NCBI GenBank assembly: GCA_000004695.1
Contig: CM000151.3
Span: 256,001-320,000, forward strand
Source: Dictyostelium discoideum
Lineage: Eukaryota
Direction of reading: 5' to 3'
Length of the DNA stretch: 64,000 nucleotides
Part shown: positions 31,113-63,032 of the stretch, in pieces
Layout of the letters: every line of letters starts with the position of its first letter
Position numbering within the stretch: position 1 is the stretch's first letter
Made by a program: the position numbers and the translations under genes
The notes under the pieces: generated by a model
The model's input: only the letters and a program-made list of their open reading frames with translations
What the model was told of the DNA's origin: nothing
Database searches by the model: none

Positions 31113-31399
31113 TTATGGTTATGTTTATTAGAAAAAAAAACCAAAGTACTTAAATAGCTCAAAAACCAAACATTTCAGAAATTCTTATTTTAGAAAAAAA
31201 AAAAAATAAAAAAAAAAAAGAATAAAAAAAAAAATAAAAAAAAGGATATATGTATTTATAGATCTTAATTATACAAATAATAAAATTATCTTATTTTAAT
31301 ACCTATTTTTTTTTTGATAATCCGAAAAAAAAATAAGAGTTCTATTATTTTATTTTTTTTTTTTTTTTTTTTTTTTTTTAGTTTCGAGAAACTAAATGT

Positions 31400-32060
31400 G
31401 GAAGTGAATCTGTGTCTTCTTATTTAACGATTATTGATAAAGAGTGAGTACATGCATTTGAAGTTTTACCACCACCACCACTACTACTTGATTTACCTCC
31501 AGTAGTTAAAGTTTTACCACCACGGCCACTACTTGATTTACCGTCAGTAGTTGATGCTGAATGGAAAGTTGATGGATGTGGACCAGTAGTGGTTGATGAT
31601 GTAGTATGAGTAGTTGAAGATTGAATAGATACCAAATGATGAGAGTGCGCTATTAATTTGAACAATGTAATTGAAAACTACTAAAACAAAGTAAGTTGAA
31701 TCTCAGGTAAGTGGCATAATAGTTTGAACGTGGTGGTATTGTGTAAAGAAAATCGTTGACATAGTAACCTTTTTCTTTTCTTCTTTTTCTTCTTTTTCTT
31801 CTTTTTCTTTGGTGTACACAGGGTCATAGGTTCCCCGTCATTTTTTGAAAATGGGGCCTATCCCCTTAAAATAAAAAACTATATGCTAAAATTTATCTCT
31901 TTTTATATCCAATGTTGATTTAATATTATCTACGAAATGCTTATCTAACCAATAGATACCTGCTTTTTCATTTCTAATTGTACCAAGATTAAATTGAGTC
32001 AGTGAAATGTTTTGAATTGTACCTAATGAATCTTTATTATTATTATTATCTCTATTAAAA
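31400..32060 (-). repeat. Composite S/T-rich unit, copy 1. Minus-strand S/T/G-rich ORF 31420..31665, a conserved 5' module with ATGTCAACGAT... first-exon-like segment and GTAAGT motifs (31640-31770), (TTCTTC)n, then a ~200-bp module GGTGTACACAGGGTCATAGGTTCCCCGTCATTTTTTGAAAATGGGGCCTATCCCCTTAAAATAAAA... (31808-31990).
   Basis: The same multi-part unit recurs at 36745-37330, 37545-38220, 43510-43625 (truncated) and, inverted, at 63190-63490. Confidence 0.5.
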
Positions 32061-32164
32061 TAAAAATAAATTAAAAAAAAAAAATGAAAAAAAAAATGAA
32101 AAAAAAAAAAATGAAAAAAAAAAAAAATTAAAAAAAAAAGGGTTTTTTTTTTTTTTATTTTAAT

Positions 32165-32380
32165 TATTTTAAAGTAATTTCATTGTTTACTCATCAAAAC
32201 CTATTGATAATAGTAAAGGTCTTGGTGGTGGTGGTGGTGGTCGATTACATAAAGAACCTATTTTAATTTATTAATATTTATTTGATAATATTTTCATCAC
32301 CATTAACATCAATTAGATATTATAAAATTTAATATCTATAGTCCAAAACTATTAATAATCCATATTTCACAATAATATTA
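32165..32380 (+). pseudogene. Short degenerate 3' fragment of a family gene
   Basis: ...FIVYSSKPIDNSKGLGGGGGGRLHKEPILIY-stop..FDNIFITININ-stop-ILNNPYFTIIL. Frames are broken. Confidence 0.6.
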
Positions 32381-32431
32381 TGAAAAAATAAAAATTAATT
32401 ATTATCCAAAAAAAAAAAAAAAAAAAATTTA

Positions 32432-32472
32432 ACATTGGTCAAACCCACTCTTTATAATTTAAACAAATAATA
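32432..32472 (+). promoter_or_regulatory. Family-conserved upstream motif (aacattggtcaaacccactctttataatttaaacaaataata)
   Basis: Alignment across paralogues. Confidence 0.6.
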
Positions 32473-34452
32473 ATGTCAACAAGTAAAAAAATTAAAACAG
32501 ATAATAATAATAAAATATTTCAAGATGTTATTGATTTTGAAATTTTAAAATCTATTATCAATTATTTATTAATCAGTAAAAAAAATAATAAAAATAATAA
32601 TACTATTAATCAATATAAAATTAGTAAATTTTATTTAAATAGAAATGAAATATTAAATTATATATTAGTTTCAAAAAAGTGGTATAATTTTATATCATTA
32701 ACAATATCAAATAATATTATTAATAATAAATCATTTGAACATTGGTTAGAAATTAATTATAATAAAAATAAATCATTTACTGAAAATTATAATAATCAAA
32801 ATCAATATGATAAAAATAATTTAGTTTTTTATAGTAAAGATGATGGTGAATTCTATGTACATAAACATAATAATATTAGTTTTAATAAAGAGTTTTCAAT
32901 TATAAAAATCAAAGAATCAATAATCAATGATTATCTCAAAAACAATTTATTTTTAGATAAAATTACAATTGATGATTTTAAAGAAATTAAAAATAAATTT
33001 GAAAATAATCAATTACTTTATAATAGAATTGTAGTTAATTTTTGTCGTAATAATGATGATACACAAATGACAACATATAAATATGGTGAAGTTCATTATT
33101 TTAAAGATCAATATAAAATTTTATTTAAAATACATGAATATGTATCAAATGAAAATTCAGAAACCATATCAAATTTATTTAAAGTGTTAGAATTAAATCA
33201 TGATTTTGAGTTGGATAAAATTTATAATCCAAAATCTGAAAAGGATAATAAAGGTAATAAGAAACCTACTACTGAATTATATTTAAATAGTTTATCAATT
33301 GTTGGTTATGATTGGAGTAAAGATGAGGATGATGATGAAGAAACAGTAAAGATATTCAAAATTTTCAAAGGTAAGAATTTAATTTATGATGGTTCCGATA
33401 TTCAGCATGAAATTTCAACACATGTCAATTATTCAGCATTATTTGACCCAGATAACTCAGGTCAACAAGTTGAATCAATTAAAGTAAAAAGTGAACGTGG
33501 TAATGATGAGTATGTCGAAGCACGTCATTTAATTAAAATTAATCAATTTGAAAATTTACATTCAATTACAATACCAATTAATTCATTTCAAATATTATCA
33601 AACTTATCCGATGATAAAATGGTATTTTATCAGTTTCATAGATATGATACAGATCCAGACAATTCAGATAATATGAAATCAGAATTAAATCAAATGATCA
33701 ATTCACTCATCACATGTAAATCTTTAAAGAATTTAAAAATACTATGTGTAAATTCAAAAAACTATTCAATTGATTTTGAAAGATTGGTTGGTGGTGATAA
33801 AGTTTCGCCTTATGAAATAAATAAAACTATAGAATCATTTTCAAATTCATTTAAACCATTATTTTCAGAATTAAATTCATCAATTGAAAGAATTGAATTT
33901 GATTGTATGGGTTTATTAAATATCAATACATTTTCAAATTTATTAAATAATAAATCAATTAAATATTTATATTTATATGATGATAGTGATTTCTTTGTTT
34001 ACTCTTCAAAAGCAAGTGATAATGGTGGTGGTAATGAATTACATAAAGAACCTATTTCAATTAATCAATATTTACTTGAGAATATTTTTTCATCACCATT
34101 AACATCAATCAGGCATTATAGAATTTGTTTCAGAGAATCAAAACAATTAAAATTCATATTTAATTTAATATTAAATAATATTTTTAAATTACATTTATAT
34201 TCATTAATATTTGAATTCTGTGAAAACGAAATAGTTGGTGAATTTGTTAAAGAATATAAAAATTTAATAAATAATATTTCAACACAACAACAACAACAAG
34301 AAGAACAACAAAAATCAAACAACATCAATTTAAAAGAAATTAAAATTAAAATTATAACTCCATTTGAATATGAAGAATATATTCAAGAATTGAATAATAT
34401 TAATAATCCATATTTCGCAACAGTAATAAAGAAAATAATTACTGATTGTTAG
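32473..34452 (+). CDS. Tandem-family paralogue (659 aa)
   Basis: Intact ORF. Upstream motif aacattggtcaaacccactctttataatttaaacaaataata (32432-32472). Confidence 0.85.
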   Translation: MSTSKKIKTDNNNKIFQDVIDFEILKSIINYLLISKKNNKNNNTINQYKISKFYLNRNEILNYILVSKKWYNFISLTISNNIINNKSFEHWLEINYNKNKSFTENYNNQNQYDKNNLVFYSKDDGEFYVHKHNNISFNKEFSIIKIKESIINDYLKNNLFLDKITIDDFKEIKNKFENNQLLYNRIVVNFCRNNDDTQMTTYKYGEVHYFKDQYKILFKIHEYVSNENSETISNLFKVLELNHDFELDKIYNPKSEKDNKGNKKPTTELYLNSLSIVGYDWSKDEDDDEETVKIFKIFKGKNLIYDGSDIQHEISTHVNYSALFDPDNSGQQVESIKVKSERGNDEYVEARHLIKINQFENLHSITIPINSFQILSNLSDDKMVFYQFHRYDTDPDNSDNMKSELNQMINSLITCKSLKNLKILCVNSKNYSIDFERLVGGDKVSPYEINKTIESFSNSFKPLFSELNSSIERIEFDCMGLLNINTFSNLLNNKSIKYLYLYDDSDFFVYSSKASDNGGGNELHKEPISINQYLLENIFSSPLTSIRHYRICFRESKQLKFIFNLILNNIFKLHLYSLIFEFCENEIVGEFVKEYKNLINNISTQQQQQEEQQKSNNINLKEIKIKIITPFEYEEYIQELNNINNPYFATVIKKIITDC

Positions 34453-35214: not shown

Positions 35215-35400
35215 CCACGTGATTGTCCCATGCCAAAATTATCATATTAATTTCAGCAGCCATATTAATTTTGGCATGGGACTTATGTCTGCCAAAATTA
35301 CCGTATTAATTTCAGCATGTACATAGCAGCCAAAATTAATAAGGTAATTTTGGCATAGAAAAAAAAAAAAGTCAAAGTCATTTAATTAATAATCATCTCA
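35215..35400. repeat. MITE-like palindromic repeat, partial copy (hairpin core CCCATGCCAAAATTATCATATTAATTTCAGCAGCCATATTAATTTTGGCATGGGAC)
   Basis: Same family as 35960-36420, 43680-43885, 47440-47580 and 51690-52150. Confidence 0.6.
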
Positions 35401-35959: not shown

Positions 35960-36420
35960 AGAAATTAAAGAAACTTATTTCGAAATTGTTTAAACAATCA
36001 TACAGTTTAAAATTAAATAAATTGTTTTAAACCACCACTTTTTTTGAACACATGAAAATAAATAAGAAATAAAAATAAAAAGATAAAAAAAGATTTGTTT
36101 TTATTTTTTTTTATTTTATAATTATTCTTGTCGTCAGTATTGTTACTATTAATTAATCCCATGAGTTTTTTATTATTATTATTTTTAATTCTTTTATATT
36201 TGAGATGATTATTATTAATTAAATGACTTTGAGTTTTTTTTTTTATTTTTCTATGCCCAAAATTACCATATTAATTTCAGCCTAAAATAGGTGGTCTGTG
36301 CATGCCAAAATTAATATGGCTGCTGAAATTAATATGGTAATTCTAGCAGACATAAGTCCCATGCCAAAATTATCATATTAATTTCAGCAGCCATATTAAT
36401 TTTGGCATGGGACACGTGAT
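35960..36420. repeat. MITE-like palindromic repeat, full copy (~460 bp): conserved arm ...ttataattattcttgtcgtcagtattgttactattaattaatcccatgag...atttgagatgattattattaattaaatgactttgag... followed by a nested long hairpin of CCATGCCAAAATTA.CATATTAATTTCAGC units
   Basis: Near-identical to 51690-52150. Non-coding and strongly self-complementary. Confidence 0.65.
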
Positions 36421-38220: not shown

Positions 38221-38764
38221 TGAATTAATTTTTATCACTTTTAAAACCGAATTCTCGACGTCTCCAAGAATATAAGAACAATAATTCAATATTGTTACAT
38301 TATGTTGTTGAAACATTTACACCTCTACCCCGTGCATATGTATCATTATTATTTGATATTGCAATTGAATGATTAACAATTAAAATGAAAACCAAAAAAA
38401 AAAAAAAAATTGGAAATTGGTAATGTTTCTACTGTAAAAAAAAAAATTAAAAAAAAAAATTAAAAAAAAAAAAAATAAAAAAAAAAATAAATAATTTTAG
38501 AAGCTATTATTATTTATTTATTTATTTATGTATTTATTTTTTTTTTATTTTTTTTATATATTTATCTTTTTAATTATTTTTTTGACAAATAATTGAGAAT
38601 GAAAACTAGAATTATTACCAATCTAATTTATTTCTTAATTTTTTTTTTTTTTGATTTTTCTTTTTTTTTTGATATTTTTCAAAAATTTTTTTTTAAAATA
38701 TATAAATGAGATATTTTAAAACATATCATTTATCAGACACTCTTTATAATTTAAACAAATAATA

Positions 38765-40618
38765 ATGTCAACAAATAAAAAAATAAAAACAGATAATAAT
38801 AATAAAATATTTCAAGATATTATTGATTTTGAAATTTTAAAATCTATAATCGATTATTTATTAACCAGCAAAAAAAATAAAAATAATAATAATATTAATA
38901 ATAATCAATATATAATTAAAAAATTTTATTTATATAGAGATGAAATATTAAATTATATATTAGTTTCAAAAAAGTGGTATAATTTTATATCATTTACAAT
39001 ATCAAATAATATTATTAATAATAAACTATTTGAACATTGGTTAAAAACTAATTTTAGTAATAATTCATTTATTGAAAATTATAATAATCAAAATCAATAT
39101 GATAAAAATAATTTAATTTATAATAACATAGAAGATAAACAATATAAAATTAGTTTTAATAAAGAATTTTCAATTATAAAAATCAAAGAATCAATAATCA
39201 ATGATTATTTTAAATTCAATTTATTTTTAGATCATTTTACGATTGACGATGATTTTAAAGAAATTAAAAATAAATTTGAAAAAAATCAATTACTTTATCA
39301 TAGAATTGTAGTTAGTGTTGATACTGATAATTATGGGTTTCCTAGTGATATTTTATTTACAATACATGAATATGTATCAAATGAAAATTCAGAAATCATA
39401 TCAAATTTATTTAAAATATTAGAATTAAATTTTGATTTTTGGTTGGATTACGGATATTGTCCACGTTCTGAAGAGGAGGATGATGAAGGTAATAAAAAAT
39501 GTAGAGAAATATATTTAAATAATTTATCAATTGCTGGTTATAATAGAGAAGTAGGTGAAGATGAAGAAACATTAAAGATATTCAAAATTTTCAAAAGTAA
39601 AAATATAATTTATGATGGATCCAATATTGATGAAAGTGATACTCCAACACATATCGATTATTCAACATTATTCGATCCAGATAATTCAGGTCAACAAGTT
39701 GAATCAATTAAAGTAAAAAATGAATATGGTAATGAAGCACGTCATTTAATCAAACTTAATCAATTTAAAAATTTACATTCAATTACAATACCAATTAATT
39801 CATTTCAAATATTATCAAACTTATCTGAAGAAATGGGATTTTGTAAGTTATATCGTACGATATATTCAGGTGATTCAGATAATATGAAATCAGAATTAAA
39901 TCAAATGATTAATTCATTCATTACAAATAAATCTTTAAAGTATTTAAATATATCATCTGTAAATTCAATATACACTCTTCCAATTAAAAATTATGATGGA
40001 GGTTATCATGAAATTTTTTTTAATAAAATAAATAAAACTATAGAATCATATTCAAATTCATTTAAACCATTATTTTCAGAATTAAATACATCGATTGAAA
40101 GAATTGAATTTGATTGTATGGGTTTATTAAATAATAAATCAATTAAATATTTATATTTATATGATAGTGATTTCATTGTTTATTCATCAAAACAAAAAGG
40201 TAATGTTAGTGGTATTCGATTACATAAAGAACATATTTCAATTAATCAATATTTATTTGATAATATATTTTCATCACCATTAACATCAATTAGACATTAT
40301 AAAATTAAATTCATAGAATTAAATCAAATCAAATTCTTATTTAATTTAATATTAAATAATATTTTTAAATTACAATTATATTCATTAATATTTGAATTCA
40401 ATGATAGCGAATTAATTGGTGAATTTGTTAAAGAATTTAAAAACTTAATAAATAATATTTCAACACAAGAACAACAAAAATCAAATAACATAAATTTAAA
40501 AGAAATTAAGATTAAAATTCAAGATGTTAATATTGATAAATATATTCAAGAATTAAATAATATTAACAATCCATATTTTACAACAATAATAAAGAAAAAA
40601 GCTAATAATGATGATTAA
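38765..40618 (+). CDS. Tandem-family paralogue (617 aa)
   Basis: Intact ORF. Upstream motif tatcagacactctttataatttaaacaaataata (38733-38764). Confidence 0.85.
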   Translation: MSTNKKIKTDNNNKIFQDIIDFEILKSIIDYLLTSKKNKNNNNINNNQYIIKKFYLYRDEILNYILVSKKWYNFISFTISNNIINNKLFEHWLKTNFSNNSFIENYNNQNQYDKNNLIYNNIEDKQYKISFNKEFSIIKIKESIINDYFKFNLFLDHFTIDDDFKEIKNKFEKNQLLYHRIVVSVDTDNYGFPSDILFTIHEYVSNENSEIISNLFKILELNFDFWLDYGYCPRSEEEDDEGNKKCREIYLNNLSIAGYNREVGEDEETLKIFKIFKSKNIIYDGSNIDESDTPTHIDYSTLFDPDNSGQQVESIKVKNEYGNEARHLIKLNQFKNLHSITIPINSFQILSNLSEEMGFCKLYRTIYSGDSDNMKSELNQMINSFITNKSLKYLNISSVNSIYTLPIKNYDGGYHEIFFNKINKTIESYSNSFKPLFSELNTSIERIEFDCMGLLNNKSIKYLYLYDSDFIVYSSKQKGNVSGIRLHKEHISINQYLFDNIFSSPLTSIRHYKIKFIELNQIKFLFNLILNNIFKLQLYSLIFEFNDSELIGEFVKEFKNLINNISTQEQQKSNNINLKEIKIKIQDVNIDKYIQELNNINNPYFTTIIKKKANNDD

Positions 40619-40794
40619 AAAAAATTATCTATATCTAAATTATTCATTTTTCATCCAACTATTTATTTTTTTTTTATTTTTTTTTTTTCAAGTTTTATTT
40701 GGATAAAATTAAATAAAATATTTTTTTTATTTATTTTTTTTTTTTTAGTTTCAAACTGTCACACCTGAATAAAAAAAATAAATGAAAAAACCCT

Positions 40795-40870
40795 CCCTCT
40801 TTATAATTTTTACAAATAATAATAATATCAACAAATTAAACAGACAATTATAATTTACAAAAAAAAAAAA
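40795..40870 (+). pseudogene. Orphan 5' remnant of a family gene (promoter motif plus first codons, ATG lost)
   Basis: ccctccctctttataatttttacaaataataataatATCAACAAATTAAACAGACAATTATAATTTACA with no downstream ORF. Confidence 0.55.
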
Positions 40871-41223
40871 AAAAAAAAAAAAAAATGGAAAAAAGAAAAC
40901 ATTTTTTTTTTTTAATTATTTCTAATTATTTTTAGAATTTAAACACTTTTATACACCTTATTATATTTTAAAATTTAAATTATTTAAAATGAGTGAATTA
41001 GGGGCAAAAAACGAAAAAAAAAAAAGAATTTCTTGCATAAAAAATATCTTTCTCAAATTTTTTTTTTTTTTTTTTATTTTATTTCATTTTTATTTTTATT
41101 TTATTTTTTATTTTATTTCATTTTATTTTTTTTTCCCAAAAAAAACCTTGTTTGAACCAAACAAATACTGTAACACACAAAAAAAAAAAATTGTAAACAT
41201 CTTTAATGGGTGCGACCATAAAT

Positions 41224-41272
<49 letters not shown>

Positions 41273-41662
41273 TTTGGGACAGTATTTGTTCGTTTCACAA
41301 AAAAAACAATTGAAAAAATCTTTCATGGCACTAAAAAAAGATTTTTAAAAAAAAAAAAAATGGATAAAATTTTAAAAAAACGATATCCATTTTGAATAAT
41401 TTAAAAAAAAAATAGGATGTATAAAGATAATCAAAAAAGAAACTTTTTATCCAAAAATGGATAAAGGTAAAATACTAAAAATTAAAATATATATATTAAA
41501 AAAAAAAATTAAATATATTTTTTTTATATATTTATTTTTTTTTTTTTTTTTTTTTTTTCTAAAAATTTAACAAAATAAACATTTTTTCAAAAAAAAAAAA
41601 AAAAAAAAAAAAAAAATTACCTCATTATTCTCGCGCACTCTTTATAATTTAAAAAAATAATA

Positions 41663-43516
41663 ATGTCAACAAATAAAAAAATAAAAACAGATAATAATAA
41701 AAAAATATTTCAAGATATTATTGATTTTGAAATTTTAAGATCAATAATTAATTATTTATTAATCAGCAAAAAAAATAAAAATAATAATAATAATACTAGT
41801 AATCAATATAAAATTAATAAATTTTATTTAAATAGAGATGAAATATTAAATTATATATTAGTTTCAAAAAAGTGGTATAATTTTATATCATTAACAATAT
41901 CAAATAGTATTATTAATAATAAATTATTTGAACATTGGTTAAAAATTAATTATAATAATAAATCATTTATTGAAAATTTTAATAATCAAAATCAATATGA
42001 TAAAAATAATTTAATTTCTAAAAACAAAAAATATAAACAAAATAAAATTAGTTTTAATAAAGAGTTTTCAATTATAAAAATCAAAGAATCAATAATCAAT
42101 GATTATTTTAAATTCAATTTTTTTTTAGATTATATTACAATTGATGATTTTAAAGAAATTAAAAATAAATTTGAAAATAATCAATTACTTTATAATAGAA
42201 TTGTAGTTAATGGTAGTTATGAAGGGGAAGTTTTATTTGGAATACATGAATATTTATCAAATGAAAATTCAGGAGTTATTTTAAATTTATTTAAAATATT
42301 AGAATTAAATCATGCTTTTAATTTATATTATAAACCAAAATCTGAAGAGAAGGATGAGGAGGATGGTCATGATGATAAAGGTAATAAGAAATGTACTGAA
42401 ATATATTTAAATAGTTTATCAGTTTTTGGTTTTGATGAAGGTGAGGGTGAAGTTCAAACATTAAAGATATTCAAAGTTTTCAAAGGTAAAAATTTAGTTT
42501 ATGATGGATCTGAAGAAGATCCTGATTTTCAAACACATATCAATTACTCTGCATTATTTGATCCAGATAGCTCAGGTCAACAAGTTGAATCGATTCAAGT
42601 ACAAAATAAATATGATAATGAAGAGTCAGTCGAAGCACGTCATTTAATCAAAGTTAATCAATTTAAAAATTTACATTCAATTATAATACCAATTAATTCA
42701 TTTCAAATATTATCAAACTTATCTAAAGAAATGGGATTTATTAGTTCCCATGGTTATGAAGAATATTCAGGAAATTCAGAAAATATGAAATCAGAATTAA
42801 ATCAAATGATCAATTCAATCGTTACAAGTAAATCTTTAAAGAATTTAAAAATAACATCTGTAAATTCAATATATTATCCAATTGATTACAAAGCTTTTTA
42901 TGATGGTGATCTTGAAACCCTTACTAATAAAGTAAATGAAACTATAGAATCATTTTCAAATTCATTTAAACCATTATTTTCAGAATTAAATACATCAATT
43001 GAAAGAATTGAATTTGATTGTATGGGTTTATTAAATATCAATACATTTTCAAATTTATTAAATAATAAATCAATTAAATATTTATATTTATATAATAGTG
43101 ATTTCATTGTTTTTTCACCTAAAAAAAGAGGTGGTCCATTTCATAGAGAACCTATTTCAATTAATCAATATTTATTTGATAATATATTTTCATCACCATT
43201 AACATCAATTAGACATTATAAAATTAAATTCATAAAATCAAATGAATTAAAATTCATATTTAATTTAATATTAAATAATATTTTTAAATTACAATTATAT
43301 TCATTAATATTTGAATTCAATGAAAACGAATTAATTGGTGAATTTTTTAAAGAATATAAAAATTTAAAAAATAATATTTCAACACAACAACAAAAATCAA
43401 ATAACATAAATTTAAAAGAAATTAAAATTAAAATTAAAGATGATGAATATATTCAAGAATTAAATAATATTAATATTCCATATTTCACCACAACATTAAT
43501 AAAGAAAATAACCTAA
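41663..43516 (+). CDS. Tandem-family paralogue (617 aa)
   Basis: Intact ORF. Upstream motif cgcgcactctttataatttaaaaaaataata (41635-41662). Confidence 0.85.
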   Translation: MSTNKKIKTDNNKKIFQDIIDFEILRSIINYLLISKKNKNNNNNTSNQYKINKFYLNRDEILNYILVSKKWYNFISLTISNSIINNKLFEHWLKINYNNKSFIENFNNQNQYDKNNLISKNKKYKQNKISFNKEFSIIKIKESIINDYFKFNFFLDYITIDDFKEIKNKFENNQLLYNRIVVNGSYEGEVLFGIHEYLSNENSGVILNLFKILELNHAFNLYYKPKSEEKDEEDGHDDKGNKKCTEIYLNSLSVFGFDEGEGEVQTLKIFKVFKGKNLVYDGSEEDPDFQTHINYSALFDPDSSGQQVESIQVQNKYDNEESVEARHLIKVNQFKNLHSIIIPINSFQILSNLSKEMGFISSHGYEEYSGNSENMKSELNQMINSIVTSKSLKNLKITSVNSIYYPIDYKAFYDGDLETLTNKVNETIESFSNSFKPLFSELNTSIERIEFDCMGLLNINTFSNLLNNKSIKYLYLYNSDFIVFSPKKRGGPFHREPISINQYLFDNIFSSPLTSIRHYKIKFIKSNELKFIFNLILNNIFKLQLYSLIFEFNENELIGEFFKEYKNLKNNISTQQQKSNNINLKEIKIKIKDDEYIQELNNINIPYFTTTLIKKIT

Positions 43517-43625
43517 AATTTAGGTGGTGTAATAGTTGAACGTGATGACATCGTGTAAAGGGGATCGTTGGCATAATAACCTACTAAATTTGGTGAACAC
43601 AGGATCATAGGTTTACTATAAACAA
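43510..43625 (-). repeat. Truncated composite S/T unit (5' module ATGCCAACGATCCCCTTTACACGATGTCATCACGTTCAAC... plus the start of the GGTGAACACAGGATCATAGG module)
   Basis: Alignment to 31700-31830 and 37250-37570. Confidence 0.45.
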
Positions 43626-43679
43626 ACATATAAAGAAATAAAAGATAAAAATAAAATGATATAAGATTTTTTTTTTTTT

Positions 43680-43885
43680 TTTTTTTTTTATTATTATTAT
43701 TATTGTAATAAAAAAAAAATAATAATTTTAGTACTAAAATTTTTTTAGTAATTTTAGTAACAGTTAATTAATCCCATGAGTTTCTATTTGTTTATATTTG
43801 AGATGATTATTAATTAAATGACTTTGACTTTTTTCTTTTTTCTATGCCAAAATTACCATATTAATTTCAGCATATACATAGCTGC
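43680..43885. repeat. MITE-like palindromic repeat, partial copy
   Basis: ...agtaacagttaattaatcccatgagtttctatttgtttatatttgagatgattattaattaaatgactttgac...ctatgccaaaattaccatattaatttcagc. Confidence 0.55.
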
Positions 43886-43936
43886 CAATGTGGTGTTCAA
43901 TTCATTCTAGATAATTTAAATAGTAACTATTATTAA

Positions 43937-44050
43937 CTATTTCTTTATTACTGTTGTGAAATATGGAATATTAATATTATTTATTTCTTGAATATATTCA
44001 TTATCATTAGTTTCAATTTTAATTTCTTTTAAAGTAATGTTATTTGATTT

Positions 44051-44126
<76 letters not shown>

Positions 44127-45916
44127 ATTGAAATATTATTTATTAAATTTTTAAATTCTTTAACAAAATCACAAACTAATTCGTTTTTATTGAATTCAAA
44201 TATTAATGAATATAATTGTAATTTAAAAATATTATTTAATATTAAATTAAATATGAATTTTAATTGATTTAATTCATTCAATTTAATTTTATAATGTCTA
44301 ATTGATGTTAATGGTGATGAAAATATATTATCAAATAAATATTGATTAATTGAAATAGGTTCTTGATGTAATTCATTACCGCTATAACTTGGTTTTGAAG
44401 AGTAAACAATGAAATCACTACCATATAAATATAAATATTTAATTGATTTATTATTTAATAAATTTGAAAATGTATTGATATTTAATAAACCACAACAATC
44501 AAATTCAATTCTTTCAATTGATGTATTTAATTCTGAAAATAATGGTTTAAATGAATTTGAAAATGATTCTATAGTTTCGTTTATTTTATTAGCAAAAATT
44601 TCATGATCAGCTCCCTTACAATCACGATAATATAAACCTTCATAATCAATTGGAGAATATTTTGAACTTACTGATGAGATATTTAAATTCTTTAAAGATT
44701 TACTTGTAATAAATGAATTGATCATTTGATTTAATTCTGTATTAATATTTTCAGAGTTACCCGATTCTGATTTACTATTATAAAATCTAATAAATCCCAT
44801 ATCCTCAGATAAGTTTGATAATATTTGAAAAGAGCTAATTGGTATTGTAATTGAATGTAAATTTTCAAATTGATTAACTTTGGCTAAATGGAGAGGTTCA
44901 ACAAATTCATCATTATCAGGTTCAATTTGTACTTTAATTGATTCAACTTGTTGACCTGAATTATCTGGATCAAATAATGCTGAATAATTGACATGTGTAG
45001 GCATATCACTACAAGTATCAGATCCATCATAAAATATATTTCTACCTTTGAAAATTTTGAATATCTTTACTGTTTCTTCATCATTACCTACTTCTCCATC
45101 AAAACCTGCAATTGATAAATTATTTAAATATAATTCAGTACATTTCTTACCACCTTTATCAGTATCATGATCACCTTCCTCCTCTTCAGAGTTTGGGCTA
45201 TAACCATTATCCAAACAAAAATCAATATTTAATTCTAATATTTTAAATAATTTTGATATGACTTCTGAATTTTCATTTGATACATATTCATGTATTCTAA
45301 ATAAAGTTGTTTTATTATTATTACTATCATAATCAGCATCAACATTAACTACAATTCTATTATAAAGTAATTGATTATTTTCAAATTTATTTTTAATTTC
45401 TTTAAAATCATCAATTGTAATCTTATATAAAAATAAATTGATTTTAAAATAATCATTGATTATTGATTCTTTGATTTTTATAATTGAAAACTCTTTATTA
45501 AAACTAATTTTATTTTGTTGATAATTATAATCTTCATCTTTAAAAATTAAATTATTTTTATCATATTGATTTTGATTATTATAATTTTCAATAAATGATT
45601 TATTTTTATTATTATAATTAATTTTTAACCAATGTTCAAATAATTTATTATCAATAATATTATTTGATATTGTTAATGATATAAAATTATACCACTTTTT
45701 TGAAACTAATATATAATTTAATATTTCATTTCTATAAAAATAAAATTTATTAATTTTATATATATTAATAGTATTATTATTTAAATTATTATTTTTATTT
45801 TTATTTTTTTTGCTAGTTAATAAATAGTTGATTATAGATTTTAAAATTTCAAAATCAATAATATCTTGAAATATTTTATTGTTATTATTTGTTTTTATTT
45901 TTTTACTTGTTGACAT
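43937..45916 (-). CDS. Tandem-family paralogue (659 aa), the only inverted member. (CAA)n-encoded polyQ of ~37 residues.
   Basis: Intact ORF on the minus strand. Family upstream motif in reverse at 45917-45955 (...cattattatttgttaacatgatatgttaagagtgagtttg). Confidence 0.85.
44051..44126 (-). repeat. (CAA)n trinucleotide microsatellite encoding polyQ (shown as (TTG)n on the plus strand)
   Basis: Direct read. The homologous polyQ in other paralogues ranges from 3 to 12 Q. Confidence 0.9.
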
Positions 45917-45955
45917 TATTATTTGTTAACATGATATGTTAAGAGTGAGTTTGAA
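45917..45955 (-). promoter_or_regulatory. Family-conserved upstream motif of the inverted paralogue
   Basis: Reverse complement reads caaactcactcttaacatatcatgttaacaaataataATG. Confidence 0.55.
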
Positions 45956-46267
45956 TTTTTAAAGTGTTTGAAAAAAAAAAAAGTAAAAAAAAAAAGAAAA
46001 AAAAAAAAAAAGTTGTGATTAGAGATGCTGGAAATGAAAAAAAAATAAAAAAAAAAAAAAAAAAAAATTTGGCAAAAAAAAAAAAAAATTGTTTTTTTTT
46101 ATTTTTTTTATTTTTTTTAAAAACAAGTTTAAACGATCCATCTTCTAATGGTAAAATGATGGGATCATTTAATTTTAATCTCTGAGTGCCGAAGAATTCC
46201 AATGGAGTATGAAGATGTTCAGTTGGTTCTATAGTTTTGTTTATAAATAAAAAAAGAGAGAATTTAA

Positions 46268-46708
46268 TTAATTAATTAAAAATAATAATAATAATAATAA
46301 TAGTTTACCTTGGTAAGCTTTACTCAAATCATGTAGTTTTTGTTTCTTTAGTGGTGACTTTCTTTTGAGGCTAGAGTTGGATTTTGAATCTTCATCTGAC
46401 TCCGATTCTGATGGATCTGAATATTCTTCCTCATTGTCATTTGGGTTTGGTAATTGTGGTTGTGGTGGTGTTATTGTTGGTATTGTCTGTGCAGTAGATG
46501 CAGAAGGGACTTGAACGGTGATTGTGTGACTTTTTAAATCTGATGAAATTTTCTTTATCCTTTGGGTTAACGCAGTTTTGGTTCTTTTTTGTTGGAAATT
46601 AATATTTAAATTATTGAGAATATCGTCGGCAACCAAAGAAGGTTTTTTTAATAATTCGCTTTTAATATAATTATCTTCAGCTGGAGACCAATTTGAAGTT
46701 TTGGGCAT
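46268..46708 (-). CDS. Myb/SANT-like DNA-binding protein (W-x2-E-D-x2-I...RTKTALTQRIKKI), acidic/Ser-rich tail. Probable GTAAAC..TATAG intron at ~46231-46310 joining a second exon (~46100-46230; ...EPTEHLHTPLEFFGTQRLKLNDPIILPLEDGSFKLVFKKNKK).
   Basis: ORF 46268..46708 begins MPKTSNWSPAEDNYIKSELLKKPSLVADDILNNLNINFQQKRTKTALTQRIKKI. ORF 45939..46202 continues after a splice with a phase-1 donor at caag|gtaaac. Divergently paired with the DDE_Tnp_4 fragment at 46947. Confidence 0.4.
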   Translation of the reverse strand: MPKTSNWSPAEDNYIKSELLKKPSLVADDILNNLNINFQQKRTKTALTQRIKKISSDLKSHTITVQVPSASTAQTIPTITPPQPQLPNPNDNEEEYSDPSESESDEDSKSNSSLKRKSPLKKQKLHDLSKAYQGKLLLLLLLFLIN

Positions 46709-46731
46709 TCTTTAAATATAAAAATAAAATT

Positions 46732-46771
<40 letters not shown>

Positions 46772-46946
46772 AAAAAAAAAAGAAGTTTTGTCAAAATACT
46801 CTCCATTAGTTTTTTCAAAAAAAAAAAAATGCACATTTTTTTTAAAAAAAATTACAGTAACAATAAATTACTATAAGCTGCTCGTAATATTTTACGAGGG
46901 CAGCACCAAAAAAAAAGTCCAGTAACTTTTACACTAAAAAAAAAAG

Positions 46947-47115
46947 ATTGATGGTATTAAAATTTATTCAGTCATAGACACCACATTATTTAATATTCAA
47001 AAACCAACTGATTTTCAAGATGTTTATTATTCACCAAAACACAAAAAACATGGCATCAAATTGGAAGTTGTATGCAACGTTTCAGATGGAAAAATCATTT
47101 GGGTATCAAATGGTG

Positions 47116-47183
<68 letters not shown>

Positions 47184-47319
47184 AAGAAACTAATTTTTTT
47201 TTTTAATTTTAGAATTTTATGGTGGGTCTGAACACGATATTACTATTTCAAGACATTCAGGTTTGGTTGATGGTGAATTTAATTTAGAGGAAGATGAAAA
47301 AATTTTGGCTTTCTATTAA
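46947..47319 (+). pseudogene. Harbinger/PIF-type (DDE_Tnp_4) transposase C-terminal fragment in two exons (46947..47112, 47213..47319); the intron contains an A73 tract; the N-terminal catalytic part is absent
   Basis: KIDGIKIYSVIDTTLFNIQKPTDFQDVYYSPKHKKHGIKLEVVCNVSDGKIIWVSN|EFYGGSEHDITISRHSGLVDGEFNLEEDEKILAFY-stop. This matches the DDE_Tnp_4 core ...aiDGThipi..P....yYs.Kh+.hsl.vqvvcd.dgrii.v..g.pGsvhD... Upstream in-frame TAA at 46935, with no further exon before the Myb-like gene. Confidence 0.55.
47116..47180 (+). repeat. Uninterrupted poly(A) tract (~65 nt) inside the intron of the transposase fragment
   Basis: Direct read. Confidence 0.9.
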
Positions 47320-47439
47320 TTAATAGAAACACTTTATCGATTATAAATAAAAATATTAAAATAACTAAAGATAAAAATGAAAATTTATAAAAAAAATTTA
47401 AATAATCATAAATAAAAGATAAAAATAAAAAGATATAAA

Positions 47440-47444
47440 AAAGA

Positions 47445-47475
<31 letters not shown>

Positions 47476-47580
47476 ATTCTTGTCATCAGTATTGTTACTA
47501 TAATTAATCCATGAGTTTTTTAATTATTGAATTTATATTTGAGAGATTATTATTTAAATGACTAAGAATTTTTTATTTTT
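47440..47580. repeat. MITE-like palindromic repeat, arm-only partial copy
   Basis: ttataattattcttgtcatcagtattgttactataattaatccatgagttttttaattattgaatttatatttgagagattattatttaaatgact. Confidence 0.5.
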
Positions 47581-47583
47581 TTT

Positions 47584-48540
47584 TTACTTACTATCATTAT
47601 AATCAGTAGCAGTATAGTTTATTGGGTCATCTAGCATTGATTTTAATCTATTATTATCTAATTTTCCTTCAAAATTTTCAATTTCTTGAATTGTTGTCGG
47701 AACTGATTCTAAAGATACTTTTAATAATATTATTGAAGTTGAAACTTGTTCTTTTTCTTTTTCTTTTTCTGATTCAGTTAATATCTTTAATTTTATTATT
47801 AATTTACAAGTGGTAATTAATCTTTTTAATGTTGATCTTTCATTAACCTGATATATAGTTTTGAGGTTTTTAATTATTAGATCAATTGTTAATTTACTAT
47901 TATTACAACTACTACTATTATTATTATTATTATTATCATTACCAATGTTATTTAAATAACATAATAATCCTTTAAAAATATTATCATTTTTTGGAATTTC
48001 ATCTAACTCGATTGATTTCTCACCAAAATCAGTGTTATTTAATGATGTTTCTAATGATGTTGATGATGGTGAGTTTGATTTTTTTAATTCTAAATTCTTT
48101 GATTGTATTATTGCAGTTGATACATAAATTGGTGAAGAGTAATAATACCTTTGAATTTTGAAAAAGTTTCTATTAAATTTGAAATCATTTTTAATTATTT
48201 CAAATAATTTCTTTAAATAAATTAAAATTAAATCTTTACGCCAACTAGATTGATCAGACTCTTTACGCCAACAAGTTTCACCAAATTCTAAATATCTACA
48301 ATTTCTATAAGCTTTTTCTTTTAAAATACTAATTTGATTTGAATCTATTAGTTTAGTTATTGACGATACTGAATCGTAACTAAATGAATATTGGTTATAC
48401 ATAAATGAGAATATCTTTTTATAAATTGCTTTATTTCTAAACAATTTCCAAAATAATATTTCAATTGGTTCTATATTATCTGTAATTGTTAATTTTATTG
48501 AATGAATTAGTATTTTCTTTTCGTTCATGTTCTTCTTCAT
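47584..48540 (-). CDS. Hypothetical protein (318 aa or longer). N-terminal EILFWKLFRNKAIY motif shared with the 19867..22956 protein. N-rich and acidic low-complexity tail.
   Basis: ORF on the minus strand with ATG at 48538-48540. The 3' end abuts a MITE fragment, so the C-terminus is uncertain. Confidence 0.45.
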   Translation of the reverse strand: MKKNMNEKKILIHSIKLTITDNIEPIEILFWKLFRNKAIYKKIFSFMYNQYSFSYDSVSSITKLIDSNQISILKEKAYRNCRYLEFGETCWRKESDQSSWRKDLILIYLKKLFEIIKNDFKFNRNFFKIQRYYYSSPIYVSTAIIQSKNLELKKSNSPSSTSLETSLNNTDFGEKSIELDEIPKNDNIFKGLLCYLNNIGNDNNNNNNSSSCNNSKLTIDLIIKNLKTIYQVNERSTLKRLITTCKLIIKLKILTESEKEKEKEQVSTSIILLKVSLESVPTTIQEIENFEGKLDNNRLKSMLDDPINYTATDYNDSK

Positions 48541-51698: not shown

Positions 51699-52150
51699 TT
51701 CGAAATGTTTAAACAATCATACAGTTTAAAATTAAATAAATTGTTTTAAACCACCACTTTTTTTGAACACATGAAAATAAATAAGATATAAAAATAATAA
51801 GATAAAAAAAGATTTTTTTTTTTTTTTTTTTTTATTTTATAATTATTCTTGTCGTCAGTATTGTTACTATAATTAATCCCATGAGTTTTTTTTATTATTA
51901 TTTTTAATTCTTTTATATTTGAGATGATTATTATTAATTAAATGACTTTGAGTTTTTTTTTTTATTTTTCTATGCCCAAAATTACCATATTAATTTCAGC
52001 AGCCATATTAATTTCAGCCTAAAATAGTTGGTCTGTGCATGCCAAAATTAATATGGCTGCTGAAATTAATATGGTAATTCTAGCAGACATAAGTCCCATG
52101 CCAAAATTACCATATTAATTTCAGCAGCCATATTAATTTTGGCATGGGAC
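51690..52150. repeat. MITE-like palindromic repeat, full copy (near-identical to 35960-36420)
   Basis: Shared arm ...aaacaatcatacagtttaaaattaaataaattgttttaaaccaccactttttttgaacacatgaaaataaataag... plus nested CCATGCCAAAATTACCATATTAATTTCAGC hairpins. Confidence 0.65.
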
Positions 52151-53069
52151 ACACACTACTACTATGATTCAACCAAATCAATATTCAACATTTAAATTAG
52201 AATTAATAGTATTAAAACAAGAATTTTCATTAATGTTCATTAAATTTAGAACGTAGTTTGAAATCATAGAATCATGACCCAACCACTGACTAGTAGTTTA
52301 AATCCATTCTCAAGTAATCATTCCAAATTATCACCACCAGCACCAAATGCAACATCAACTACAACATCAAATCAGCAGCATCTCAATCGAAACAATTGCA
52401 GCTCATGAATCAATTCTTACTCTTCAAATCTAGCCAGTAAATGGTATCTCTGAAAATGAGACAAAATCTCAACAAGCCACCCCAGAGAATTAGATTAGAG
52501 CTCTGAAGTTGATTGATGCAACCCATTGTTATCACAGGTGGTAAATCTGTAACAATATTTTCAACCATATGGTTAATATGAATAAATTTTATTATCTATA
52601 ATTAAAGGTTGTTGATTTAATCTATCGTTATTATTAATTTTATCTATTGATAAATCTAGTAGTATATCTCTTATCTCGTCTAATCTTTTTTTTGCAGTTT
52701 TTTGTGAAATTTTAAAAATAAATGATAAATTATCCATAGTAGGATAATTTTTTATAAAATAAAAAAATAATAATTTGAAATTTTTATTTTATTTTATTTT
52801 TCTTCGTTTATTGATCCATATATTTTAATAAAGGAAATTTTATCTACCCAAAATAAGGAGCGAAATTCCCTTTAATATATTCTCTAAGGAATTATATGTT
52901 TCCATTCTTTAATAATAATTCATTAAAATTAAAAAAAAAAAAAAAATTTAAAAAAAATAAAAAAAAAAAAAGACTTTTAAAATTGAATATGAAAATGGTG
53001 ATAATTATGCCATTATTGAATTTGTACTCTATGATAAATTTAATGGTCAAGAAATTTTAAACAAATGGG

Positions 53070-53489: not shown

Positions 53490-55472
53490 ATGTCAACAAA
53501 AAAAAAAATTAAAACAGATAATAATAATAAAATATTTCAAGATTTTATTGATTTTGAAATTTTAAGATCTTTAATCAATTATTTATTAATCAACAAAACA
53601 AATAATAATAATAATAATAATAATAAATATAAAATTAGTAAATTTTATTTACATAGAAATGAAATATTGAATTATATATTAGTTTCAAAAAAGTGGTATA
53701 ATTTTATATCATTAACAATATCAAATAATATTATTAATAATAAATCATTTGAACATTGGTTAAAAATTAATAATAATAATAATAATAAATCATTTACTAA
53801 AAATTATAATAATCAAAATCGATATGATAAAAATAATTTAATTTTTAATAACAAATATAGTAAAAATAAAATTGGTTTTAATAAAGAATTTTCAATTATA
53901 AAAATCAAAGAATCAATAATCAAAGATTATTTTAAATTCAATTTATTTTTAAGTAATATTACAATTGATGATTTTAAAGAAATTAAAAATAAATTTGAAA
54001 ATAATCAATTAGTTTATAATAGAATTGTTGTTGATATTAAAACTGGCTATTATGGTGAAGGGAATCAAGATGAAATTTTATTTAAAATACATGAATATGT
54101 ATCAAATGAAAATTCAGAAATCATATCAAATTTATTTAAAATATTAGAATTAAATCATGATTTTATGATAATCGATGACTTTCATCCAAAATCTAAAGAA
54201 GAGGATGAAGAGGATGAGGAGGATGATGAAAATGATAAAGGTAGTAAGAAATGTACTGAAATATATTTAAATAATTTATTGGTTTCCGGTTATGATCTAA
54301 CTATGGATGAGGATGAAGATAGAGAATCATTAAAGATATTCAAAATATTTAAAAGTAAAAATATATTTTATGATGGGTCTGGTATTGCTAGTGATATTCC
54401 AACACATGTCAATTATTCAGCATTGTTTGATCCTGATAATTCAGGTCAACAAGTTGAATCGATTAAAGTAAAAAATGAACTTGAAGATCCTGATTTTGTA
54501 GAACCACTCCATTTAATCAAAGTTAATCAATTTAAAAATTTACATTCAATTACAATACCAATTAATTCATTTCAAATATTATCAAACTTATCCGAAGAAA
54601 TGGGATATTTTAGTATCGATTGTTTTAAATCTGGTTTTGGTCTTTCAGATAATATGAAATCAGAATTAAATCAAATGATCAATTCATTCATTACAAGTAA
54701 ATCTTTAAAAAATTTAAAAATAACATCTATTAGTACAAAAGAAGATCCAATTGATTATGATGCTTATTATGATGAAGGTGATCTTCAAACTTTTATGAAT
54801 CAAATAAATGAACCTAAAGAATCATTTTCAAATTGTTTCAAACCATTATTTTCAGAATTAAATACATCAATTGAAAGAATTGAATTTGATTGTTGCGGTT
54901 TATTAAATATCAATACATTTTCAAATTTATTAAATAATAAATCAATTAAATATTTATATTTATATGATAGTGATTTCTTTTTTTCTTCATTAAAAACAAG
55001 TGATGGTGGTAGTGATGATTGTGGTATTGATGATGATGGTGGTAGTGATGATTGTGGTATTGATGATGATGGTGGTAGTGATGATTGTGATGCATATCAA
55101 AAAATTATTTCCATTAATCAATATCTATTTGAAAATATATTTTCATCACCATTAACATCAATTAGACATTACAGAATTAAATTCAAAGAATTAGATGAAT
55201 TAAAATTCATATTTAATTTAATATTAAATAATATTTTTAAATTACAATTATATTCATTAATATTTGAATTCAATGAAAACGAATTAGTTTATGAATTTGT
55301 TAAAGAATTTAAAAATTTAATAAATAATATTTCAATACAAGAACAACAACAACAACAACAAAAATCAAACAACATAAATTTAAAAGAAATTAAAATTATA
55401 ATAAATGATGACTGTTTAGAAGAATTAAATAATCCATATTTCAAAACAACAATAAAGAATAGCCCATATTAA
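53490..55472 (+). CDS. Tandem-family paralogue (660 aa). Contains a 3 x 27-bp tandem repeat encoding DGGSDDCGIDD at ~55010-55090. Its upstream region lacks the CACTCTTTATAA motif.
   Basis: Intact ORF with all conserved blocks. Confidence 0.85.
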   Translation: MSTKKKIKTDNNNKIFQDFIDFEILRSLINYLLINKTNNNNNNNNKYKISKFYLHRNEILNYILVSKKWYNFISLTISNNIINNKSFEHWLKINNNNNNKSFTKNYNNQNRYDKNNLIFNNKYSKNKIGFNKEFSIIKIKESIIKDYFKFNLFLSNITIDDFKEIKNKFENNQLVYNRIVVDIKTGYYGEGNQDEILFKIHEYVSNENSEIISNLFKILELNHDFMIIDDFHPKSKEEDEEDEEDDENDKGSKKCTEIYLNNLLVSGYDLTMDEDEDRESLKIFKIFKSKNIFYDGSGIASDIPTHVNYSALFDPDNSGQQVESIKVKNELEDPDFVEPLHLIKVNQFKNLHSITIPINSFQILSNLSEEMGYFSIDCFKSGFGLSDNMKSELNQMINSFITSKSLKNLKITSISTKEDPIDYDAYYDEGDLQTFMNQINEPKESFSNCFKPLFSELNTSIERIEFDCCGLLNINTFSNLLNNKSIKYLYLYDSDFFFSSLKTSDGGSDDCGIDDDGGSDDCGIDDDGGSDDCDAYQKIISINQYLFENIFSSPLTSIRHYRIKFKELDELKFIFNLILNNIFKLQLYSLIFEFNENELVYEFVKEFKNLINNISIQEQQQQQQKSNNINLKEIKIIINDDCLEELNNPYFKTTIKNSPY

Positions 55473-61313: not shown

Positions 61314-63032
61314 ATGTTAACAAATAAAAAAATTAAAACAGATAATAGTAATAAAATATTTTCAAATACTAATGATAATGAAATTTTAAGATCTTTAATC
61401 GATTATTTATTAATCAGCAAAAACAATAAAACAAATAATAATAATAATGCAAATCAATATAAAATTAAAAAAATTTTAATAAATAGAAATGAAATATTCA
61501 ATTATATATTAGTTTCAAAAAAGTGGTATAATTTTATATCATTAACAATATCAAATAATATTATTGATAATAAATCATTTGAACATTGGTTAGAAATTAA
61601 TTATACAAAAAAATCATATACTAAAAATAATAATAATCAAATTCAATATGATAAAAAGAAAATTAATTTTAATAAAAAGTTTTCAATTATAAAAATCCAA
61701 GAATCAATAATCAATGATTATTTTAAATTCAATTTATTTTTAGATAATTTTACAATTAATTATTTTAAAGAAATTAAAGATAAATATGAAAATAATCAAT
61801 TAGATTATAAAAGAATAGTTGTTAATCTTAAAACTAATTCTGGTGGTAATAAAAAAATTTTATTAAATATAAATGAATATGTATCAAATGAAAATTCAGA
61901 AATCATACCAAATCTATTTAAAATATTAGAATTAAATTCTGATTTTAAGTTGGACAAGTGCTATATTCCAATATCTGAAGGTACTGAAATATATTTAAAT
62001 AATTTATCGATTTCTGGTTATGAGGGTATAACATCGAAGATATTCCAAATTTTCAAAAGTAAAAAGATAATTTATGATGGGTCTTGTTGTCCAACAAATG
62101 TCAATTATTCAAAGATATTTGATCCAGATAATTCAGGCCAACAAGTTGAATCGATTAAAGTTAAAAATGAAAGTGGTAATAAACAGTTTGTTGAACCACA
62201 TCATTTAATTAAAGTTTACCAATTTGAAAATTTACATTCAATCACAATACCAATGGATTCATTTCAAATATTATCAGGCTTTTCTGAAAAAATGGGATTC
62301 AATAAATTTGATATGAATAATAAATATCCAGGTAATTCGAAAAATATGGAATCAGAATTAAATCAAATGATCAATTCATTCATTACAAGTGAATCTTTAA
62401 AGAATTTAAAAATATCATCAGTATGTTCACAATACGTTATTTTTAAAATGAATATTGATAAAATAAATCAAATTAAAGAATCAATTTCAAAATCATTTAA
62501 ACCATTATTTTCAGAATTAAATACATCAATTGAAAGAATTGAATTAGATTGTGGTGGTATATTAAATATCAATACATTTTCAAATTTATTAAATAATAAA
62601 TCAATTAAATATTTATATTTATATGATAGTGATTTTATTGTTTATTCATTTAAACAAACTGGTGGTGGAAGTTATTGTAGTATTAATCAATTTCTATTTG
62701 AAAATATATTTTCATCACCACAAACATCAATTAAACATTATGGATTTTGCTTCAAAAAATCAAATGAACTCGAATTAATATTTAATTTAATATTAAATAA
62801 TATTTTTAAATTACAACTATATTCATTAATATTTGTATTAAATAAAAACGAATTAATTGAGAAATTTGTTAAAGAATATGGAAAATTTATAAAAAAAATT
62901 TCAACACTAATACAAAAACCACAACAAGAACAACAAGAAAAACAAGAACAAGAACAACAACCACAGGAAATACAAAATTTAAATTTAAAAGAAATTAAAA
63001 TTAAAATTAAAATTAAAATAAAATTATTTTAA
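61314..63032 (+). CDS. Divergent, shorter tandem-family paralogue (572 aa; MLTNKKIKTDNSNKIF...). C-terminal (KI)n and (QEQ)n expansions. The family-conserved C-terminus (NPYFTTVIEK) lies out of frame at 63040-63125.
   Basis: Intact ORF with conserved blocks (DPDNSGQQVESIKV, NMESELNQMINSFITSESLKNL, SFKPLFSELNTSIERIELDC). Downstream QYFQELKNLKNPYFTTVIEKTVNING is in another frame. Confidence 0.75.
   Translation: MLTNKKIKTDNSNKIFSNTNDNEILRSLIDYLLISKNNKTNNNNNANQYKIKKILINRNEIFNYILVSKKWYNFISLTISNNIIDNKSFEHWLEINYTKKSYTKNNNNQIQYDKKKINFNKKFSIIKIQESIINDYFKFNLFLDNFTINYFKEIKDKYENNQLDYKRIVVNLKTNSGGNKKILLNINEYVSNENSEIIPNLFKILELNSDFKLDKCYIPISEGTEIYLNNLSISGYEGITSKIFQIFKSKKIIYDGSCCPTNVNYSKIFDPDNSGQQVESIKVKNESGNKQFVEPHHLIKVYQFENLHSITIPMDSFQILSGFSEKMGFNKFDMNNKYPGNSKNMESELNQMINSFITSESLKNLKISSVCSQYVIFKMNIDKINQIKESISKSFKPLFSELNTSIERIELDCGGILNINTFSNLLNNKSIKYLYLYDSDFIVYSFKQTGGGSYCSINQFLFENIFSSPQTSIKHYGFCFKKSNELELIFNLILNNIFKLQLYSLIFVLNKNELIEKFVKEYGKFIKKISTLIQKPQQEQQEKQEQEQQPQEIQNLNLKEIKIKIKIKIKLF

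Follow-up and report, generated by a model that had tools for sequence, protein, structure and literature searches.

A probable relic of a two-gene PIF/Harbinger-type transposon in Dictyostelium discoideum

Positions 46021-47310 of a 64,000-nucleotide stretch of the Dictyostelium discoideum genome (assembly GCA_000004695.1, contig CM000151.3, positions 256,001 to 320,000 of the forward strand; 21% G+C; hereafter "the window", numbered from its first letter) most probably represent a PIF/Harbinger-type DNA transposon of the D. discoideum species group, in a copy that is dead, has internal deletions and is truncated at its end (we put the probability of this reading at roughly 84%). The copy holds part of a DDE_Tnp_4 transposase gene on the plus strand and the first part of a second gene, here called the partner, on the minus strand; the partner start and the transposase fragment lie head to head, 229 bp apart. 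A previous reading of these letters alone (the sequence-only reading) had recognized this divergent two-gene arrangement, which we find again at four other loci together with inverted ends and 3-bp flanking repeats, and had regarded the unit as a relic, a status confirmed here by the truncation of both genes and the loss of the second end. Because intact relatives occur in sister species, the PIF/Harbinger superfamily is present in the Dictyostelium group. The window copy itself measures 1.29 kb, versus ~2.5 kb for the reconstructed intact element, and by its sequence is an immobile, ordinary fossil with no transposon function and no demonstrated host function. Proteins predicted from the window matched D. 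discoideum annotations.

On the plus strand, 46938-47111 translates to KKKIDGIKIYSVIDTTLFNIQKPTDFQDVYYSPKHKKHGIKLEVVCNVSDGKIIWVSN and 47213-47316 to (E)FYGGSEHDITISRHSGLVDGEFNLEEDEKILAFY*, with the stop codon at 47317-47319. Both pieces are in phase across a 100-nt GT..AG intron (47113-47212) in which 66 A follow one another without a break (47116-47181), bearing out the splice that had been proposed across a poly(A) intron. The spliced product of 93 amino acids (aa) matched the Pfam family DDE_Tnp_4 (PF13359) with 50.2 bits (Pfam cut-off, 24.8 bits; E = 2.9e-13; profile positions 1-79 of 158), and the predicted DDE_Tnp_4 core is thereby established. Its intact homologue, the 283-aa protein ACTFIZ_005937 (P0012) of locus L007, has a complete DDE_Tnp_4 domain (profile 1-158 of 158, E = 4.4e-25) and an intron at the same codon, after residue 163 (67 nt, L007 10490-10556). 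The first exon fragment (46947-47112, +; motif VIDTT) is 98% identical to P0012 residues 115-163 and, having no in-frame start codon, cannot start translation; the second (47213-47310, +; motif GGSEHD) is 100% identical to residues 164-196. The sequence-only reading held that the N-terminal catalytic D region was lacking, which proved incorrect: the first catalytic D (VIDTT) and the second (SEHD) are both retained, and what is missing is the stretch of ~108 aa that precedes the catalytic domain, together with the C-terminal half. Homology stops after ..EKILA at 47310, beyond which the window reading frame adds F-Y-stop (47311-47319) in unrelated sequence and L007 and L003 go on with DKGYLGE.... 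No match was returned by a word-indexed protein search with the 93-aa fragment, and the fragment is annotated nowhere as a protein. A full phmmer scan with P0012 yielded 1008 relatives at E≤1e-3, the closest named ones being DDE Tnp4 proteins of Polysphondylium violaceum and Heterostelium album (35-36% identity). NCBIfam reported a weak, distant similarity of the transposase to bacterial IS5 transposases, and a search for related solved structures found none.

The partner begins with an ATG at 46708 on the minus strand. Its naive open reading frame (ORF) runs from 46708 to 46268, and the gene model places exon 1 at 46708-46309, an 80-nt intron (GTAAAC...TATAG) at 46308-46229 and exon 2 from 46228, in agreement with the exon join in two annotated proteins: hypothetical protein ACTFIT_002096 (P0001), the annotation of the partner in another strain, and DDB_G0269532 of AX4 (P0009). 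Exon 1 is 100% identical to residues 1-133 of both proteins. It encodes first a helical N-terminal domain (the part that the sequence-only reading called Myb-like), then a Pro/Thr linker followed by an acidic stretch, and last a basic patch, KRK..KKQK. The exon 2 remnant (46119-46228, -; EPTEHLHTPLEFFGTQRLKLNDPIILPLEDGSFKLVF) is 100% identical to P0009 residues 134-165 by tblastn; it is followed by an A/T-rich subterminal region with the 3' untranslated remnant of the partner (46046-46118, -), collinear with L002 ~10914-11035. On the other side of the ATG lies the remnant of a divergent shared promoter (46709-46946), as seen from the alignment of window 46313-46950 with L007 9159-9797 (91%). 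The partner family is small, with members in D. discoideum, D. cf. discoideum and D. dimigraforme. Full-length members such as DDB_G0269532 (279 aa) have a conserved C-terminal domain (GYPPFDIEI...SRWYIKY...DEWIDS) that the window partner does not have. The truncated window ORF is possibly still transcribed. The transposase fragment and the partner gene model both lie well outside what chance would produce.

Paralogue loci were retrieved and searched by tblastn. The same head-to-head pair of transposase and partner was found in the window (locus L001 in a second strain) and at four other loci, L007, L003, L004 and L005, in D. cf. discoideum, with different flanking genes at every locus. Among these copies of what we term family 1, L007 encodes the intact transposase P0012, the transposase of L003 is split by a ~3.3-kb insertion, and L004 (with three stops) and L005 retain the 3' part of the transposase only. 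Three further loci (L012, L013 and L006) hold the partner gene only, and L008 of D. citrinum holds the transposase with no detectable partner. Stops or frameshifts occur in either gene in several sister copies, including in the partner N-terminal domain. No intact family-1 transposase was found among the annotated proteins of D. discoideum proper, where only decayed family-1 copies were seen.

Homology between the copies ends at shared inverted termini (AGAGATGCTGG). Family-1 termini have the form (T)AGAGATGCTGGAAAT(T)GAAAAAA, with AGAGATGCTGGAAAT followed by a run of A. In the window, the terminal inverted repeat (TIR) survives on the partner side at 46021-46045 (AGAGATGCTGGAAATGAAAAAAAAA), with the same outer ends in L002, L005, L006 and L007; the A/T-rich subterminal sequence next to it is shared with L002 and L006. 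The 20-mer TAGAGATGCTGGAAATGAAA occurs once in the window (46020-46039; 0.02 occurrences expected). Both inverted ends are present in L002 and L005, and one end is present in L006 and L007. L004 carries a variant terminus at both ends, forming a 15-nt perfect inverted repeat; the exact L004 variant ATGGTGGAATTTGAAAA was not found in the window, where it had one match with 3 mismatches (1.9 expected by chance), and the D. discoideum TIR variant was derived from loci other than L004. If the element is taken to start at AGAG, the ATT at 46018-46020 is a candidate 3-bp target-site duplication at the surviving end, and a triplet A-W-T precedes 8 of 8 readable family-1 termini. Family-1 copies with both ends show direct 3-bp flank repeats (ATT/ATT in L002, AAT/AAT in L005).

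A sister family (family 2) in D. dimigraforme shows the same organization in apparently intact form. Three 3.63-kb copies (L009 3980-7610, L010 3987-7599 and L011 ~3890-7605), 98-99% identical to each other, occupy three unrelated loci. They have inverted ends of ~300 bp starting with TGTGATATGGTAATTTTGGAAG and are flanked by perfect 3-bp duplications (AAT in L009, AAT in L010 and ATT in L011), such that a duplication of 3 bp is found in all five two-ended copies (ATT, AAT, AAT, AAT and ATT). Each encodes a 288-aa DDE_Tnp_4 protein head to head with a 327-aa protein of an architecture like that of the window partner; this two-gene head-to-head layout holds for 4 of 4 family-2 copies, and one family-2 element adjoins the family-1 copy in L003. 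Apart from the duplicated triplet, these traits are the ones by which PIF/Harbinger elements are defined. Their sequences suggest that the L009-L011 elements are probably recently or currently active. DDB_G0282883 (P0018), the sole AX4 DDE_Tnp_4 protein among the matches of a protein search, belongs to family 2 and is probably catalytically dead, because it reads IIVKNFF instead of IIVENFF (K for the catalytic E) and GSELD instead of GSEHD.

The lesions of the window copy were mapped to the base by alignment with L007, L003 and L002. A deletion of 527 bp (L007 9798-10324, absent from the window) has its junction at 46946-46950 (+) with ATTG microhomology and took the transposase promoter, the start codon and the first ~108 codons, upstream of the catalytic domain. 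A break after 47310 (..TTGGCT|) took the C-terminal half of the transposase, including DKGY... and the YRQMIENVF motif with the third catalytic residue, along with the second inverted end. A deletion of ~349 bp at 46119|46118 (TTT microhomology, relative to L002) took the C-terminal domain and stop codon of the partner, so that the partner ORF reads on through poly-T. As reconstructed from L007 and L002, the intact element would have measured ~2.5 kb, with short inverted ends and two head-to-head genes sharing a promoter region of ~450 bp. Its transposase would have had 283 aa, with ~110 aa upstream of the D-D-E catalytic domain and one intron; its partner, from a gene that also had one intron, would have had ~280 aa in three parts: a helical domain at the N-terminus, an acidic/basic linker and a beta-rich domain at the C-terminus. 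If the element worked as characterized Harbinger elements do, the partner protein would attach to the element ends and recruit the transposase there, and cutting and pasting by the transposase would duplicate 3 bp (A-W-T). The three lesions ended both mobility and transposase coding and left the one end, the truncated partner ORF and the transposase fragment seen today.

The sequence-only reading had called the partner Myb/SANT-like, a designation that found no support in any of five approaches (Pfam, a profile search of PDB, hhalign, AlphaFold and Foldseek). With hmmscan, neither the P0001-like exon 1, nor P0009, nor the family-2 partner matched a Myb-type Pfam family, even at E≤1-10; the partner had no hit to any Pfam family at E≤10, and a profile of the N-terminal domain run against the PDB sequence set returned no Myb or SANT protein. 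Alignment with Myb repeats by hhalign gave P = 0.05 and covered helix 1 only. AlphaFold predicted two helices for partner residues 1-66, with a confidence score (pLDDT) of 78 and no three-helix bundle formed, and the model had no Foldseek match in PDB; the prediction for the full-length paralogue P0007 was unusable (pLDDT 50). The resemblance of the partner to Myb proteins is thus at motif level only (W-S-x-x-E-D..., R-T...). The N-terminus of the family-2 partner (FSKEEVEII) is similar to that of NAIF1 (hhalign P = 0.0017), which is a lead and not a test.

Selection was estimated by the Nei-Gojobori method. Ratios of non-synonymous to synonymous divergence (dN/dS) between old subfamilies were low for both genes (partner, 0.06-0.26; transposase, 0.09-0.18; dS ~0.5-2), meaning that both genes were functional in those lineages from which descendants survive. 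Constraint was relaxed in recent pairs (L002-L006, eight non-synonymous changes to one synonymous; L003-L004 transposase, four to none). Low ratios at depth together with relaxed recent pairs are, as far as these comparisons go, the usual pattern of a transposon and not of a domesticated gene.

Several observations weigh against a simple transposon relic. Over 165 aa the window partner is 100% identical in protein sequence to the full-length AX4 gene DDB_G0269532, which may be under some degree of host-level constraint, and the window and L007 versions of partner exon 1 are separated by 3.5 non-synonymous and 7.5 synonymous changes (ratio 0.12). Modeling and profile searches lend no support to a Myb/SANT or other DNA-binding fold in the partner, and homology between the family-1 and family-2 partners was not detectable (BLASTP E = 0.86; hhalign P = 0.13), even if the two are alike in architecture and position. 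The duplicated triplet is A-W-T, versus the T-W-A usual for PIF/Harbinger, and, read conservatively, its middle base alone carries information (concordant in 5 of 5 copies, p about 0.03). The window, moreover, has a single surviving end; with the other end lost, a duplication cannot be shown in the window copy. With neither a DNA-binding fold nor cross-family homology to draw on, the accessory role of the partner is argued from its position, its domain order and its co-occurrence with the transposase. A rival reading is that the host has domesticated the pair, or at least the partner, in the manner of HARBI1/NAIF1 or the plant pair ALP1/ALP2, leaving in the window a functional host gene beside a leftover transposase. 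Consistent with this, besides the identity to DDB_G0269532 and the exon 1 ratio of 0.12, the partner has been annotated as a gene, and its promoter and start codon persist along with the N-terminal domain and the basic patch; DDB_G0269532 is itself identical in a second strain; and no intact family-1 transposase was found among the annotated proteins of D. discoideum proper. However, the window partner is without its conserved C-terminal domain and runs into poly-T, the inverted end is still in place, and the transposase fragment has no start codon. Copy number and position also vary between strains and species, sister copies carry stops and frameshifts in the N-terminal domain, and recent pairs are relaxed; an active transposon would produce low ratios between old subfamilies just as well. 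Domestication, which the sequence-only reading had entertained, is on balance quite unlikely for the window copy. A related reading, in which the partner would be a new, dictyostelid-specific Harbinger accessory protein of non-Myb/SANT type and DDB_G0269532, a full-length copy kept in D. discoideum proper where no intact family-1 transposase was seen, a recent domesticate, is unlikely as well.

The two other explanations that we considered dispense with transposition or with the pairing, and both appear highly improbable. Tandemly duplicated genes (~570-730 aa) surround the relic in the window, and all D. cf. discoideum ACTFIY copies are damaged, as might be expected had the unit spread by segmental duplication of a host gene pair whose transposase domain was an old captured gene; yet homology ends exactly at the shared inverted termini, with different genes outside and matching 3-bp flanks, and family 2 consists of textbook insertions at three unrelated loci. 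Similarly slight is the chance that the minus-strand gene is an unrelated host gene lying next to a transposase fragment by coincidence. Such an origin would account for the lack of a recognizable Myb/SANT or other transposon-associated domain in the partner, but four loci besides that of the window have the two genes paired head to head within the same inverted termini, and both genes show comparable divergence patterns. The D. citrinum copy L008, with a transposase and no detectable partner, hints that one lineage may carry the transposase without the partner.

Taken as a PIF/Harbinger-type relic, the window copy can be compared with described systems. Like maize PIF, rice Ping/Pong and zebrafish Harbinger3_DR, the Dictyostelium elements combine a DDE_Tnp_4-type transposase distantly related to IS5 with a second gene within the element, terminal inverted repeats, a 3-bp duplication and low-copy cut-and-paste behavior. 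They differ from them in being very compact (~2.5 kb in family 1, 3.6 kb in family 2) and strictly head to head, in the triplet duplicated (A-W-T versus T-W-A) and in a second protein with no detectable Myb/SANT/trihelix signature. The domesticated pairs HARBI1/NAIF1 of vertebrates and ALP1/ALP2 and HDP1/HDP2 of plants derive from the same two Harbinger genes; unlike the window element, which keeps an end, has both ORFs truncated and belongs to a set of copies that vary between strains and decay, those pairs are single-copy, syntenic, intact and without inverted ends. The nearest named relatives of the family-1 transposase are the dictyostelid DDE Tnp4 proteins DDB_G0282883, PPL_00134 (Heterostelium album) and CYY_002829 (P. 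violaceum), which share the Pfam domain at 25-36% identity; they carry automatic names only, with no ends, partner or duplication described in the literature searched.

The classical D. discoideum DNA transposons, Tdd-4/5, DDT-A/B/S and thug-S/T, are likewise present in few copies and have inverted ends. DDT elements are Tc1/mariner-like, and none of the classical elements is reported to have a DDE_Tnp_4 transposase or a two-gene layout. A full-text literature search, which did not extend to Repbase, found no description of Harbinger or DDE_Tnp_4 elements in Dictyostelium or of the DDB genes named here. In a 2017 review, the DNA transposons given for D. discoideum are Tdd, DDT and thug only (PMC5633606), and the transposase of Tdd elements is integrase-like (PMC2836005). 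The PIF/Harbinger-type family thus appears to be undescribed in the Dictyostelium literature; the suggestion that it was unrecognized stands as far as this review goes, with the qualification that the DDE_Tnp_4 domain had already been annotated automatically in AX4 (DDB_G0282883) and other dictyostelids. PIF/Harbinger would constitute a fourth group of DNA transposons in the D. discoideum mobilome. Close relatives hold intact and apparently recently active copies (the 283-aa transposase of D. cf. discoideum and the three 3.6-kb copies of D. dimigraforme), and such compact native elements could be turned into a cut-and-paste tool or be used as markers when strain history is traced. In current annotation, ACTFIT_002096, DDB_G0269532, DDB_G0271528 and DDB_G0282883 should be marked as transposon-derived. 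No tRNA genes were found in the window; there is therefore no tie between the relic and tRNA-targeted insertion.

Minor observations concern the remaining copies and families. Locus L006, where DDB_G0271528 is annotated, retains the C-terminal half of the partner and one inverted end only (10505-10933), with two short inverted duplicates of the 3' end of the copy just upstream (10289-10433), and lies between two polyketide synthase (PKS) genes on the same contig as the window locus, 220 kb away. The idea that the window and DDB_G0271528 fragments are halves of one broken copy was rejected, as they overlap by ~30 residues. A third DDE_Tnp_4 family in D. cf. discoideum consists of 1.8-kb units, each with a 434-aa ORF in a single exon. 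L007 has two copies (5924-7727 and 11189-12979) that share 99.2% identity and lie 5 kb from each other, with the family-1 element there flanked or interrupted by them; no copy of this family was found in the window.

The window also contains a second, independent Harbinger-type relic at 52573-52900 (-), the N-terminal part of a transposase of another DDE_Tnp_4 lineage (MDNLSFIFKISQKTAKKRLDEIRDILLDLSIDKINNNDRLNQQPLIIDNKIYSY*). Its identity is 94% with the D. citrinum protein ACTFIU_011279 (P0020; residues 1-54) and 46% with P0012 residues 50-116. It ends exactly at the first catalytic D, followed by G+C-richer foreign sequence (~52200-52570), and has no adjoining partner gene. A palindromic repeat of ~40 nt (CCAAAATTACCATATTAATTTCAGCAGCCATATTAATTT) occurs in clusters at 35223-35353, 36257-36409, 43835-43872 and 51976-52146 of the window and at L003 9298-9452. 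The 15 nt at its start are identical to an inner portion of the family-2 inverted end (..CCAAAATTACCATATCACA), and ATATGGTAATTTTGG occurs 8 times versus 0.08 expected; from its sequence, the repeat may be a derivative resembling a miniature inverted-repeat transposable element or a shared binding motif. Both relics are flanked by a tandem array of at least 11 paralogous ORFs of ~570-730 aa (2017-6361, 23349-34452, 38765-45916, 53490-55472 and 61314-63032), with no Pfam domain in 4 of 4 scanned. The 5' and 3' flanks of the array ORFs are repeated too (for example, 45800-45947 with 38738-38881; 47408-47585 with 51777-51969). PKS genes adjoin family-1 copies in L003, L006 and L012, and the window itself carries a PKS fragment at 11349-16586 (+) with KS-C, AT, DH, MT and ER domains in an ORF without its N-terminus, as well as a Dicty_CTDC repeat protein at 636-1478 (+).

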